Shown piece after piece: positions 28,929-33,215 of a DNA stretch of 33,988 nt (position 1 is its first letter; each line of letters opens with the position of its first letter). The stretch covers positions 1-33,988 of the forward strand of contig JAYENL010000159.1 in NCBI GenBank assembly GCA_034722055.1, written 5' to 3'. Under the pieces are notes generated by a model. That model did not search any database, was not told the origin of the DNA, and worked only from the letters and a program-made list of their open reading frames with translations. Origin of the DNA: Armatimonadota bacterium (GTDB lineage Bacteria; Armatimonadota; Zipacnadia; Zipacnadales; UBA5352). Made by a program: the position numbers and the translations under genes.

Positions 28929-29852
28929 GTGGGACCCGGCACACCCACCAAGCAGGTGAGCGAGCTGCCTGCAGCCGTCCGTGAGGAGCTCGCCAACAGC
29001 ATCCAGCTGTCGTTCGCCGGCGTCTACCTCGCATTCACGCCGTCCCTTAGCCACTGGCGCGATGTCAGCAACAGTCAGCTCCGGCGCTGGAAGAACGCGG
29101 TATGGATCGCCCGCAATCTACCGGGTGAGTTCCGTAAGAGGGTTGCGGACACCTCCACCCACGATCACGTCGGCGCGCTGGCCAATCGTGCTGGCGACGC
29201 GGTCCAGCTGCCGGCCGCCCTGGCCCTGCTCAGCCGCCTGCCGCCCGCGCTGGCGATGCAGGCGGTGATGGCCCACCGCGACGCCGGCGACCTATGGCGC
29301 TACGTCAACGGCCCGCTGAGGCCGCCGGAGTGGTGGCGCCGGCCCTGCGTGGCCTACCGGGCCTGGACGTGGGAGCGGTTGTGCCTGGAGCTGGCCGAGG
29401 CCGAGTACGGCCCGGTGCTGGCCGGGCTCCGCGGAGAGACGCTGTGCGCTCACGGGCTGATCCCCGACATCATCGTGGGCGAGGTCGTGAGGGACGCCGA
29501 CGGGGTGGTGGTCAGGGCCGAGCACATCATCGACGCCAAGAGCGGCCGCGCACCGCCACACGAGCACGCGTACGCCGACCGCTGTGACGTGTTGGAGTAC
29601 TGGCACGCTGGCCACCACGGCCAGTGGGTGGAGCGGCCCTGTGGCCACTGTACCATCATCTACCAGAGCGCGGAGGATCTGCAGCAGCTGGCACGGCCGC
29701 ACGGGCTGGGCGAGCGGGTTGCCGACTTCGCCGAGGGGGAGGACTACTTCGGCCTCTACCTGCAGTTTGTGCTCGAGCACGGCACGCGGGATCTGGAGCT
29801 CGCGGACCTGCACCTGGCGGGTACCCTGCACGCGGAGGAGGGGGAGGTCTAA
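28929..29852 (+). CDS. Hypothetical protein with a PD-(D/E)XK nuclease-like C-terminal domain
   Basis: GAGGAGG RBS; WERLCLEL...LIPDIIV...IIDAKS...Y gives the E...PD...DxK arrangement. Confidence 0.6.
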   Translation: MGPGTPTKQVSELPAAVREELANSIQLSFAGVYLAFTPSLSHWRDVSNSQLRRWKNAVWIARNLPGEFRKRVADTSTHDHVGALANRAGDAVQLPAALALLSRLPPALAMQAVMAHRDAGDLWRYVNGPLRPPEWWRRPCVAYRAWTWERLCLELAEAEYGPVLAGLRGETLCAHGLIPDIIVGEVVRDADGVVVRAEHIIDAKSGRAPPHEHAYADRCDVLEYWHAGHHGQWVERPCGHCTIIYQSAEDLQQLARPHGLGERVADFAEGEDYFGLYLQFVLEHGTRDLELADLHLAGTLHAEEGEV

Positions 29853-30196
29853 GGCTGCGCTGAGGTACTACGACGATACGAAGAGACCTGGATGGCTCGG
29901 AGCTTTCGTGTGCTTGGTCGCCCTTCCATGATTGTGCGCACCTGTCCACGGCTCCGGCACAGCAGACCGGCGGGATCAGTTGATGTGCGACCCACAGTCT
30001 TACGCGAAACTCTGAGGCCCTGATAGGCGTCAAACGAGACGGCGGTCAAAGACTGTCTACCCCTGGATTGGGGGGTGTCTTAGCCCCAATGAAGAGAGTG
30101 GGGGGGATTTGGTGGACCGGGAGGACGTATGGGGATGGGCATGGAATAGGACCGGTGCGGGGCCGAATACATGGAGTTGCTTCGGAGAGGATTCCC

Positions 30197-31054
30197 GTGA
30201 GTGTCGCGATCAACATTAAGGTCAATGATGGGGTCGTGTTGGCTGCAGACACCGCAACCACAGTTGCCCAGGCAGTCCAAGGCGGACAACAGCCGACAGT
30301 GATGAACATCTACAACAACGCTAACAAGGTGTTCAATCTACTGAAGGGGCAACCGATCGGGATGATCTCGTGGGGGGCTGGCGGCATCGTATCGGCTTCG
30401 ATCGCGACGCTGGCCAAGGACCTTCGCCATCGCTTCGCAGATGGTGAGGAGTCCTGGCGCCTCGACGTGAGGGGATACACGATGGAGCAAGTGGCGGGGC
30501 TCGTCAGGAGGTTTATGTTTGAGGAGCAGTACACAGAAGCATTCAAGGAGGTAGAGGCAAGTGACCGCCCTCCCCTCGGGTTTGTCGTGGCTGGGTACTC
30601 GGCCAACGCGGCGATAGCTGAGGAGTACAAGATCACGATCGAGCGCGGCGACTGCCCGGAGCCCGAACTCATCCGCAAGCCAGGTGAAGTTGGGATCACT
30701 TGGAACGGGCAAGGCGAAGCTATCATACGTCTTGTCGCGGGTTTCAGCGGCCGTCTGCCGCAGGTCTTGACGGGGACGTTCGACGACGACCTTGCTCGCC
30801 GCGTATTCGACACCGTGCGGGGATCTTTGCAGGCTCCTCTTGTGCATCCGGCGATGCCGATTCAAGACGCTGTTGACCTCGCCGATTTCTTGGTTGATGC
30901 CACGATCAAGTTCTACAAGTATCTCCCCGGTGCACCCTCAGTTGGCGGCCCGATCGAGATAGCCGCGATCACCAAGCATGAGGGGTTTAAATGGATCCGC
31001 CGGAAGCACTACTACTCACGGGAGCTGAATCCGGAGCTGGGAGGGCAAAGGTGA
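30197..31054 (+). CDS. Proteasome-beta-like Ntn-hydrolase with Ser1 and no propeptide
   Basis: GGAGAGG RBS 6 nt before GTG 30197. Mature S1VAINIKVNDGVVLAAD17, then ANKVF, SWGAG, FVVAGYS, SVGGPIEIAAITKHEGFKWI. Confidence 0.78.
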   Translation: MSVAINIKVNDGVVLAADTATTVAQAVQGGQQPTVMNIYNNANKVFNLLKGQPIGMISWGAGGIVSASIATLAKDLRHRFADGEESWRLDVRGYTMEQVAGLVRRFMFEEQYTEAFKEVEASDRPPLGFVVAGYSANAAIAEEYKITIERGDCPEPELIRKPGEVGITWNGQGEAIIRLVAGFSGRLPQVLTGTFDDDLARRVFDTVRGSLQAPLVHPAMPIQDAVDLADFLVDATIKFYKYLPGAPSVGGPIEIAAITKHEGFKWIRRKHYYSRELNPELGGQR

Positions 31055-31437
31055 TGGACGACATAGGTGGCACGACCATGGTCGATCAGCCTGAAGACCA
31101 GAGCATGATCAACTACTACACGGGATCGGTTGATCTCCAGACTGACCTCTGCGAACAAACCTCCGGCACCACGGTCTCTGTGCCCATCTCTGAGGAATGG
31201 TTGGCCATCCTCTTTGAAGCCCCTATCCTCCTTCGGCGCAGAATCGCTGTGGCCCCCGACGATTGGGCAACCGTTTTCAACCTCCTTCTGGACATAGGTG
31301 GAGGGCGCGCCCTGCGCGGCAACCGTTTCGACGTGACAGACTACCAGATAGCAGTGTTGGCCCAAGAGCAGGTGGACTTCCGCGTGGTGGGGTTCGGTGA
31401 ACCTCTACGAGATCATTCTGCCCTGCACCGACAATGA
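31051..31437 (+). CDS. Hypothetical protein (~128 aa), translationally coupled to the Ntn gene
   Basis: GTGA start/stop overlap at 31051-31054 with GGGAGGG upstream; no family recognised. Confidence 0.55.
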   Translation: MMDDIGGTTMVDQPEDQSMINYYTGSVDLQTDLCEQTSGTTVSVPISEEWLAILFEAPILLRRRIAVAPDDWATVFNLLLDIGGGRALRGNRFDVTDYQIAVLAQEQVDFRVVGFGEPLRDHSALHRQ

Positions 31438-31696
31438 CGGTCGTGAAATCGAGCCCGAGAAATACGAGGAGACGCTAAGGGAACTCATACACCACTTCGG
31501 TGGTGCGGAGTTTGAGCGTTCTTCGTTCTCGGGCTACTGGCAAGACGAACCTGATCTGTACGAGGACGACAACGTCCTAATGCGGGTGGAGGCGTCGGAT
31601 GACAGTGACTTCTGGTCGCACTACAAGGAGGTACTGAAGACGCGGTTCCGCCAGGAGGAGATCAGGATCCGTGTCATCCCACTAACGATTGTGTAG
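31397..31696 (+). CDS. Small acidic DUF3574 / PII-like-fold hypothetical protein
   Basis: YEIILP..DNDG..IEPEK...L...FGG...GYW...YEDD...LKTRFRQEEI pattern; overlaps the previous ORF by 41 nt. Confidence 0.7.
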   Translation: MNLYEIILPCTDNDGREIEPEKYEETLRELIHHFGGAEFERSSFSGYWQDEPDLYEDDNVLMRVEASDDSDFWSHYKEVLKTRFRQEEIRIRVIPLTIV

Positions 31697-31699
31697 CTG

Positions 31700-31736
31700 G
31701 CCTGCCCGTCTTTCCCCGAGGCGGGCAGCGGCTTTT
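31700..31736 (+). terminator. Probable intrinsic terminator
   Basis: Stem CTGCCCGTCT / AGGCGGGCAG (one G-U pair) followed by CGGCTTTT, just after the stop at 31696. Confidence 0.55.
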
Positions 31737-31830
31737 AAGCTGGTGGCGAGGAACAAGTAGCTATAGATGAGAGGCCGTAGGCGAACTCCTCTCACGCACA
31801 ACGGGCCAGATGTGGCTTGATGCGAAGGCT

Positions 31831-32259
31831 TCAGTCGAAATTAAGTTCTTCCCTGAGCCGCTTCAGTATTCCTTCTTGTTCGCGTTTCGCCTGCGACTTG
31901 GCTGCCTCCTGTGCTGCGCGTTTGCTTTCTTTTTCCTCTAGTAGTTGCTGGTATCTCTCGTTCGCGTCATGGACCTTTCGCTTGGCGTGGTCCAACTGAG
32001 CTTGGACTGCATCTGTCTGATCCGAATGAGACCGCACTACCAGACAAGGCACGCCGTGCGCGGTGGTGAACTCAGGGGCGGGTTGCGATAATGGCCCACC
32101 GAATCTCCATATCTCTTGGAAGATCTCCTTCCACTCGCCAGGCGGCTTGGCAGACAACTCGAAGTGTACCATCCACCAGCCGCTGTTATCCCTGAGGTCT
32201 TCGGGTTGACTACTGGCGAGGCCAAGTATCCGGATCTCTTCGAAGTCCTGTGCACACAT
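31831..32259 (-). CDS. Hypothetical protein (142 aa): alpha/beta domain plus C-terminal coiled coil
   Basis: AGGGGG RBS before ATG 32259; FEEIRILG...VHFELSAKPPGEWKEIF...KVHDANERYQQLL...ELNFD. Confidence 0.7.
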   Translation of the reverse strand: MCAQDFEEIRILGLASSQPEDLRDNSGWWMVHFELSAKPPGEWKEIFQEIWRFGGPLSQPAPEFTTAHGVPCLVVRSHSDQTDAVQAQLDHAKRKVHDANERYQQLLEEKESKRAAQEAAKSQAKREQEGILKRLREELNFD

Positions 32260-32616
32260 TCTGCTGCCCCCTATGCAAGAGGTGGGTACTCTGGTTGTAG
32301 ATTCCGTGCATAGCAGCAGGACTCCTCCGAGCAGTCGAAGCGAAGGCAGGAGACCAGGTGGCGCAAGGGGTAGGCGAGCAGCGGCGCTCATGTCCATCGG
32401 CCCACCTAGTGGTCCAGCGGCAATTCCCCCGTTTACGGCCCAGGCTTCTTCGGCTCCGGCGCCTTATTGAAGGTGGCGGAGCCATGCTTGAGGAAGGCAC
32501 AACCGATTCCCTTCGGCCTGATCAGCGTGTGCCGCCAGAGGAGCCATAGATCGTCCAAGGGGACAGCGCACAATCCCCTGCTGCCACGTAACGCAAAACG
32601 CCGGGGGCGCGATCCG

Positions 32617-33215
32617 ATGACGCACCTCATCGAGCTCCACCGCGACGAGATCGAGGGCCACGCGGCGCTGCTCTACATCCCTCGCACCCGCGGCCAGCCG
32701 CATTACGCCGACAGCGTGAGCCGGGCCATCCTGGCCTTCCACAAGCGGCCCCGACTGGACTGGGCGAATCTGTGCGCCCGGCTGCTGCGCTCGGCGCTGC
32801 CCATGGGCGCCGACACGCTCACGTTCCCCCCGCAGGCACCCGACGAGGACTGGAGTGCCGGCCGCACGTTGGCCCACGCCCTGGGCCGAGTCTCGGGCGT
32901 CCCTTGTCGCGAACTCGTCTTCGTACAGGAGCCCCGGCGCGGCGGGGATGTTCTCTGTCCCACCGACCTGAGCGGCCGGCCCATTGTCGTGGTCGATGAC
33001 ATCTGGCGGACCGGCGCGAGTATGGTGCGGTGCGCCGCGGCTCTCAAGGCGCAGGCGCCCGCCAGGTCTCGGCGCTGACGCTGGCGAAGGTGGCCACCAG
33101 GAAGGAGCAGCGGGAGACGGACCGCGAGGCCGGCGAGCAGGCCCTTCGGGATCCCAAGCGTGGCGGCGACGAGAGGACGAAGGCTGAGTTTGTCCGCTTG
33201 GTCTCGAATGCGTGA
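32617..33215 (+). pseudogene. ComF-like type I phosphoribosyltransferase with a 1-bp frameshift near the C-terminus
   Basis: PRPP loop IVVVDDIWRTGAS. Adding one G at ~33049-33056 joins ALKA(A/Q) to GARQVSALTLAKV, the typical terminal strand, which lies in the other frame. Confidence 0.75.

Follow-up and report, generated by a model that had tools for sequence, protein, structure and literature searches.

The window analysed here, a stretch of 33,988 nucleotides (nt) from an Armatimonadota bacterium (contig JAYENL010000159.1 of assembly GCA_034722055.1), contains an operon of three overlapping genes that starts with a proteasome-beta-like hydrolase. Comparison with relatives of this hydrolase showed that the sequences of the trio are swapped between loci but that the layout is conserved: a small gene follows the hydrolase, and a third slot behind it can hold a type II toxin. 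We favour the reading, at a probability of roughly 45%, that the window operon is a peptidase-antitoxin-toxin module in which cleavage would free the toxin upon a trigger. Functional coupling of some kind between the hydrolase and the toxin-antitoxin (TA) pair is highly probable. We give an even chance to the broader idea of a widespread tripartite TA class, in which a proteasome-beta-like peptidase would act as sensor or switch of interchangeable toxins via an N-terminal antitoxin peptide, probably in abortive anti-phage defence. The genes are located as follows.

30197-31054, plus strand: gene 1, GTG start, 285 amino acids (aa); propeptide-less, proteasome-beta-like N-terminal nucleophile (Ntn) hydrolase of the PMI type (best fit PMI-2)
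31051/31054-31437, plus strand: gene 2, 128/127 aa; overlaps gene 1 by 4 or 1 nt
31051-31236, plus strand: N-terminal extension of gene 2, ~60 aa, without detectable homologue; takes the slot of the small peptide found behind the hydrolase in nearly all relatives
31237-31437, plus strand: C-terminal domain of gene 2, homologue of the 70-90 aa partner that precedes stand-alone gene-3 homologues; putative antitoxin
31397-31696, plus strand: gene 3, 99 aa; overlaps gene 2 by 41 nt; PII/CutA-like ferredoxin fold; toxin slot

These open reading frames (ORFs) and their overlaps agree with an initial annotation of the window, which had been made from the sequence without database searches. The three genes lie together, with 0-1 differences, on a single contig of 4,583 nt, present in two public runs that may be the source of the window sequence.

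After removal of the initiator methionine, gene 1 starts with Ser1 and contains Asp17 in a GVVLAAD motif, Lys43 in NKVF as the equivalent of Lys33 and a C-terminal SVGGPIEIAAIT..GF strand, all as described in the initial annotation. In 168 of the 172 relatives extracted, residue 1 is immediately preceded by a start codon (ATG, GTG or TTG), which supports both the start at Ser1 and the absence of a propeptide. Pfam, NCBIfam and the PDB, searched with the gene 1 sequence, gave sub-threshold proteasome matches only. The AlphaFold2 model, calculated from an 83-row alignment, is confident, with a predicted local distance difference test (pLDDT) value of 90.5. Foldseek matched it to Anbu (E = 2.6e-8; at least 500 matches at E<=0.001), and a VIA superposition with Anbu resulted in a Z-value of 17.3 and a root-mean-square deviation of 3.4 for 200 aligned residues. 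The corresponding Z-values were 15-17 for 20S beta subunits, 11.8 for HslV, 11.3 for BPH and 9.9 for Connectase, at sequence identities of 11-20% to these five proteins, with which gene 1 shares the fold and the catalytic triad. Judged by its model, gene 1 is a proteasome-beta-fold Ntn hydrolase, which bears out the earlier proposal.

Asp17 and Lys43 do not vary in the 83-row alignment, and Thr1 is conserved to at least 90%. Residue 1 is Thr in 139 and Ser in 18 of 157 distinct relatives from the fetched loci, Lys43 is present in 157/157, and all 45 toxin-linked hydrolases retain Thr/Ser1, Asp/Glu17 and Lys43; positions 1 and 17 were built into the extraction pattern, Lys43 was not, and 10 of 183 loci were not extracted. 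With its triad intact, gene 1 is predicted to be catalytically complete after methionine removal. Ser1 occurs in at least two separate clades, one with L041, part of L050-L063, L075, L076 and L226 and the other with L001, L039 and the window, so that the Thr-to-Ser exchange has occurred more than once.

In the model, helices H1 (69-82) and H2 (96-115) are kept, an 11-aa loop follows H2, and strands S3 and S4 are joined by a short link without helices. A helical insertion of ~40 aa, with extra helices within residues 187-211, separates H3 (174-181) from H4 (222-241). The C-terminus consists of two strands and a short low-confidence tail; the long C-terminal coiled-coil helix H5 of Anbu is absent. 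The PMI families are defined by their insertions, and for none of the 22 families of the same study is a genomic context reported that would suggest a function (PMC8665760). Gene 1 resembles the PMI homologues in the beta fold, the Thr1/Ser1-Asp17-Lys33 triad, the missing propeptide, the helical H3-H4 insertion and the patchy occurrence in bacteria and Euryarchaeota (PMC8665760). We assign gene 1 to the PMI type on the basis of its model, with PMI-2 as a tentative best fit by insertion pattern (an H3-H4 insertion and none after H2 or at S3/S4; PMC8665760); none of the accessions shown for 10 relatives is a listed PMI representative. The difference is that the window family has a clear genomic context suggestive of function, whereas the published families come without one (PMC8665760).

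The module had been called uncharacterised in the initial annotation. This needs qualification, as the enzyme family is already catalogued, by computation, as PMI-type (PMC8665760); it is otherwise unnamed and large, with 2,349 proteins at E<=0.001, 5,887 representatives at 50% identity and 441 sites in genomes sampled at one per species. Its spread is patchy (20/401 genomes of the window's phylum), and searches of plasmid and phage collections with gene 1 gave partial matches only (4 and 1 records). At the window hydrolase both the propeptide and the alpha-subunit or HslU partner of 20S beta and HslV are absent. Neither partner was found among the recurrent neighbours of 103 hydrolase loci, and the genome has its own HslV-HslU pair elsewhere, on contig C208, so that the absence of an adjacent HslU or alpha subunit noted earlier stands. 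Longer relatives of 420-450 aa (L138-L142, L148) likewise precede a short ORF, with no toxin seen in the third slot.

The conserved layout was analysed in two partly overlapping sets of loci: set 1 comprises the best 80 of 441 genome loci and 23 viral loci, set 2 consists of the 80 best out of 483 metagenome loci. Directly behind the hydrolase, an ORF on the same strand, 45-160 aa in length and starting -16 to +45 nt from the hydrolase stop, was found in 96 of 101 set-1 loci with enough flank and in 69 of 72 set-2 loci; behind the stops of other long ORFs, such an ORF was present in 406 of 1,058 control cases (38%). The dedicated small partner gene that had been postulated is thereby a regular feature of the family. 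For the third slot, loci with at least 700 nt downstream were counted. Type II toxins recognised by Pfam occupy it in 30 of 96 set-1 loci (PIN 14, PemK/MazF 7, ParE/RelE 5, Fic/Doc 4), namely in 28/78 genome loci and 2/18 viral loci, and in 15/58 set-2 loci plus two on shorter contigs. At E<=1e-5, toxins were found downstream in 27/96 loci and upstream in 0/92 (Fisher p = 2e-9, a value overstated by the non-independence of kin); the upstream control comprised 150 of 165 candidate ORFs and covered all 92 loci that have one. Collapsing both sets at 60% identity left 52 clusters, with a toxin in 17. Another 17 loci from the phylum, mostly distant relatives and exclusive of two already in set 1, contained a toxin in six cases (4 Doc, 2 PIN).

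Of 27 loci measured, 26 have the toxin start at -50 to +60 nt from the stop of the small gene. A tree of 157 hydrolases, obtained by a quick search with SH-aLRT support only, requires 35 changes of the third-slot label. The window hydrolase groups with L039 and L001, both from Armatimonadia assemblies, at a support of 99. These two are its nearest relatives, and since the third slot holds a PIN toxin in L039 and a Doc toxin in L001, we regard gene 3 as occupying the toxin slot. Homologues of gene 2 or gene 3 were found in no other hydrolase locus fetched, so that the trio as such was seen only in the window. The initial annotation would have counted the lack of both small genes next to all homologues as a refutation, and in the literal sense this is what was observed; the slots, however, are conserved although their sequences are swapped.

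The small proteins in the second slot have an N-terminal part rich in Ser, Thr, Pro, Gln and Asn. After removal of 7 doubtful ORF picks and near-duplicates, their median length was 95 aa with a toxin (n=39) and 64 aa without (n=46), and their tails were acidic with and basic without a toxin. In relatives below 60% hydrolase identity, the last 30 aa gave the toxin class in 37 of 68 cases, compared with a mean of 23% and a maximum of 44% after shuffling. By class, the prediction was correct for RelE in 10/10, PIN in 11/17, Doc in 5/8, MazF in 2/9 and the unknown family in 9/24 cases. The first 45 aa gave the class in 18/68 and were not predictive. Read from these sequences, the slot-2 protein appears as a disordered extension followed by a tail that tracks the toxin class. 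The tails resemble the ends with which Phd-, RelB- and MazE-type antitoxins bind their toxins.

The same build can be recognized in gene 2. Homologues of gene 3 are preceded by a 70-90 aa partner in 18 of 23 loci (L105-L127), and the overlap between the two genes is mostly 31-40 nt, compared with 41 nt between gene 2 and gene 3. A hidden Markov model (HMM) of 14 partners, from which gene 2 was excluded, placed gene 2 at the top of 67,441 six-frame ORFs of the genome (E = 1.1), and an HMM with four more partners, found by the profile itself, placed it there again (E = 0.004). The pairwise value was 6.7e-8 for residues 69-118, with 18.7 bits against 6.4 for the best of 2,000 shuffles. Gene 2 is therefore chimeric, with a ~60-aa extension fused to gene 3's partner as in the toxin-bearing loci. 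The N-terminal ~60 aa would be the substrate or ligand of gene 1. A complex prediction of the hydrolase (83-row alignment) with residues 1-62 of gene 2 gave a score of 0.01, compared with a mark of 0.32, and weighs neither way. The gene-3 family and its partner form a stand-alone, unannotated, overlapping pair, several copies of which are broken. The pair shows traits of type II systems, being composed of two small overlapping genes, paired in 18/23 loci and patchily distributed (24/401 genomes). Pfam, NCBIfam and PADLOC found no known toxin or antitoxin domain in gene 2, gene 3 or the tested homologues.

The model of gene 3 (pLDDT 94) has a PII/CutA-like ferredoxin fold. The initial annotation had called this gene DUF3574/PII-like, and the fold part of the name can be kept. 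The DUF3574 part was rejected, with one of 18 family members matching at E 0.14 and no match to PF12098 at this locus; the likeness is structural only (TM 0.70). Among the fold matches, CutA reached a Z-value of 8.8, the phage S-adenosylmethionine (SAM) lyase 6zm9 8.1 (97 aligned residues) and SAM-AMP lyases 7.2-7.9 (96-98 aligned); the values are middling and tied between CutA and the lyases. No VapD, Cas2 or GhoS chains are among the fold matches listed. Within the gene-3 family, Gly46, Trp48 and Gln86 are invariant and Asp57 is nearly so (at least 90%). Their order is that of Gly56, Tyr58, Glu69 and Gln104, which are conserved in the phage SAM lyase Svi3-3 (PMC7877911), and the conserved Gly, aromatic, Glu and Gln residues lie at the trimer interface in this lyase family (PMC7877911, PMC12255297). 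The alignments cover 97-98 of the 99 residues. Judged by the offsets at their ends, Gln86 falls on lyase Gln104 and Gln108, a mapping by aligned ranges and not by residue-level superposition. Gene 3 differs from the SAM lyases in having Asp for the key Glu, in giving no match to PF23780 and in a CutA Z-value (8.8) at least as high as that of the lyase (8.1). A SAM-lyase-like function, suggested by the model, is therefore a doubtful lead. T3 SAMase is toxic at higher expression (PMC7877911), and a SAM-lyase-like toxin would starve the cell of SAM. By its slot position, gene 3 is a candidate new toxin.

Members of the gene-3 family occur in 20-24 of 401 genomes of the phylum and, as far as the fetched flanks extend, never near a hydrolase. 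Gene 3 retrieved only itself in a word-indexed homologue search; the homologues came from genome searches. In the ESM Atlas, the gene-3 domain is found inside 270-aa pyrophosphatase-family proteins of Bacteroidota and also in viral clusters.

Based on these results we propose the following mechanism. The core of the system would be a PMI-type peptidase together with a short disordered peptide, encoded directly downstream, which would contact the enzyme as its dedicated substrate or ligand. Type II TA pairs would plug into this core, with the toxin-neutralising part of the antitoxin fused to the C-terminus of the peptide and the toxin as third gene. In the resting state the antitoxin part would hold the toxin. 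Upon a trigger, phage infection or stress, the peptidase would cut in or behind the extension, and the antitoxin part would be released or degraded. The freed toxin would then halt growth. In the window, the plugged-in pair would be the C-terminal domain of gene 2 and the PII-fold protein of gene 3. A defence or conflict role had been suggested from a neighbouring nuclease and phosphoribosyltransferase (PRTase). A conflict role is likely, but on other grounds, because type II toxins occupy the third slot in relatives; a defence role may be supposed by analogy with the toxin-antitoxin-chaperone (TAC) systems only.

TAC systems (HigBAC, CmdTAC, MqsRAC) combine a disordered C-terminal ChAD, a SecB-like chaperone, modular grafting and competition by a phage protein (10.1101/2024.02.24.581848). 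They share with the present loci the three genes, the interchangeable type II toxins and an antitoxin that is connected to a third protein through a disordered extension. In contrast, the third component in the window has an Ntn peptidase fold with an intact triad instead of a SecB-like chaperone; the hydrolase gene comes first, the extension is N-terminal whereas the ChAD is C-terminal, and a toxin-less two-gene form is common. RosmerTA likewise couples a protease to diverse toxins, but there the ImmA metalloprotease is the antitoxin of a two-gene pair, while in the window a separate antitoxin-like gene lies between peptidase and putative toxin (PMC10440598).

A number of results speak against a peptidase-antitoxin-toxin module. 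About half of the loci lack a Pfam-recognised toxin in the third slot, as do 16 of the 18 viral loci whose flank is long enough, so that the toxin would have to be optional, and the p-values overstate the enrichment as the kin are not independent. Gene 3 matched no known toxin family and was seen paired with the hydrolase only at this locus. Antitoxin families in Pfam were matched by none of 63 slot-2 proteins, NCBIfam gave a single weak RelN match (E = 0.048) among the 12 slot-2 proteins searched, and tail HMMs picked out no stand-alone antitoxins in the window's genome (best rank 106). PADLOC had no model that matched the hydrolases tested. Finally, an aromatic motif of the Tyr-Gln type, picked by eye in the extensions of set 1 (20/85 versus 6.6 expected), was weak in the held-out set 2 (7/51 versus 3.2 expected; 28 of 1,000 shuffles as high), and we therefore claim no firm recognition motif.

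The direction of control could also be the reverse of the one proposed. The extension may destabilise the antitoxin, and the hydrolase may bind or constitutively trim it and so keep the antitoxin working, until a phage competitor or inhibitor of the hydrolase frees the toxin. This would parallel TAC, in which a disordered element ties the antitoxin to a third protein and a phage protein competes (10.1101/2024.02.24.581848), and it fits all the genomic evidence behind the favoured reading, from which no sequence feature found here separates it; a propeptide-less enzyme would, moreover, be active from synthesis. If stabilisation of the antitoxin were the sole job of the hydrolase, the toxin-less two-gene loci would be more difficult to account for, and we consider this alternative unlikely. 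The same loci, about half of the total and most of the viral ones, could be taken to mean that the hydrolase itself is a harmful effector and the peptide its inhibitor, a propeptide in trans, with the TA pair as a second warhead on the same labile peptide. The tight coupling of the genes and the missing propeptide are in line with this idea. For a tight inhibitor, however, it would be unusual that the peptides have hardly any sequence in common across the family, given the high conservation of the enzyme, and toxicity of the hydrolase is purely conjectural; we consider this explanation improbable.

TA modules cluster in mobile regions. TA pairs might accordingly insert behind a mobile two-gene unit and borrow its promoter, the fusion resulting from a lost antitoxin start or DNA-binding domain and the hydrolase having an unrelated job. 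The absence of toxins from about half of the loci would agree with such hitch-hiking, as would L018, where an apparently ordinary pair of toxin and helix-turn-helix antitoxin, recognized by eye, lies ~570 nt behind the hydrolase. It would leave unexplained why the enrichment is one-sided and specific to the slot (27/96 versus 0/92), and why the tail is in frame with the peptide across at least 17 clusters with four Pfam toxin classes, GNAT-like and unknown families and at least 35 label changes on the tree, which makes it improbable. The last alternative concerns the chemistry of the enzyme, which might ligate the small partner or its peptide onto other proteins. The proteasome residues Ser129, Asp166 and Ser169 are apparently replaced by G-E/Q-P/G and P-G-A-P-T/S-V-G-G (mapped by element order and not by superposition), and the chemistry may differ from that of the proteasome. 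Connectase from M. jannaschii, a transpeptidase, indeed uses Ser1 (S1A mutant; PMC7980362), and the initial annotation had emphasised this likeness. We do not take Ser1 as evidence for a Connectase: the family as a rule starts with Thr1 (Ser in 18/157), H1 and H2 are kept and the two-helix S3/S4 insertion is missing, the opposite of Connectase, which has lost H1/H2 and has this insertion (PMC8665760). The Z-value of 9.9, against 17.3 for Anbu, likewise makes ligation very unlikely.

The peptidase-antitoxin-toxin layout appears to be undescribed; we found no description in listings from searches of open-access full text, and the terms 'proteasome' and 'Ntn' have 0 occurrences in PMC13069673 and PMC10440598. 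For one of 22 families lacking a functional clue, it offers the neighbouring peptide as a candidate substrate and toxicity as a simple readout. How type II TA systems are triggered is a long-standing open question, to which a dedicated protease in the operon would, if true, add another answer to those already known, which are host proteases, SecB-like chaperones and direct sensing. In many relatives the toxins are standard ones (Doc, MazF, RelE, PIN), which makes the idea readily testable. The third slot would further nominate new toxin families, namely gene 3, a ~225-aa family and a 55-aa two-helix membrane protein.

The ~225-aa family has an N-terminal QGD motif and fills the third slot of 24 loci (8 in set 1, 16 in set 2) from Acidobacteriota and metagenomes. 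An example is L013:3541-4257; L010, L020, L188 and L213 look related by eye. It had no Pfam, NCBIfam or meaningful PADLOC match and is a candidate new toxin family. Hydrophobic ORFs of 55-58 aa, probably two-helix membrane proteins, were observed at L002:3612-3776, L026:9079-9246 and, ~250 nt behind the hydrolase, in L102. They have no family match, the small proteins before them have a common C-terminal motif, and in L002 a TIGR04255 gene follows the 55-aa ORF. GNAT-like acetyltransferases, possibly GNAT-type toxins, occupy the slot at L155:1840-2400 and L161:3633-4235, with a Pfam match only for L161. In L131 the hydrolase is followed by a 185-aa protein and an overlapping ORF of ~160-190 aa without known family, possibly another unrecognised pair. 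The viral and prophage copies (L081-L103, also L006 and L062) consist mostly of hydrolase and peptide only, and several lie directly downstream of endolysin genes.

The surroundings of the operon contain the following features.

28929-29852: upstream gene, 307 aa; host-like G+C content (GC), outside the islet
29853-32397, no strand: low-GC islet with the three genes and a convergent 188-aa ORF
30184-30191, plus strand: ribosome-binding site GGAGAGGA, 5 nt ahead of the gene 1 GTG, read from the sequence
31703-31727, plus strand: GC-rich 10-bp hairpin with four T behind it; perhaps a weak intrinsic terminator
31831-32397, minus strand: convergent, low-GC 188-aa ORF with a coiled-coil-like C-terminus, without family match

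The islet has a GC of 0.55-0.60, compared with 0.684 genome-wide and 0.70-0.71 in the genes on either side. We found no tRNA in the window and no convincing repeats bounding the islet. The terminator that had been proposed to close the operon is present as a hairpin with four T, but a terminator scan did not call it (z = -1.97; 10 of 200 shuffles equally stable). The nuclease and PRTase that had been read as island context both have a host-like GC of 70-71% and lie beyond the islet edges, which rules them out as parts of the module. The supposed nuclease, the 307-aa upstream gene, had no significant family match, the best PHROG being Cas4-like at E 0.18. Partial copies of it are present on contigs C89 and C98, and other run contigs diverge at position 29217; the copies and the branching of contigs suggest a repeated mobile element. 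The ComF-like PRTase ORF (32617-33212 in the window) has an apparent frameshift near its 3' end, with the C-terminus likely in another frame, and its sequence is identical in the public-run contigs.

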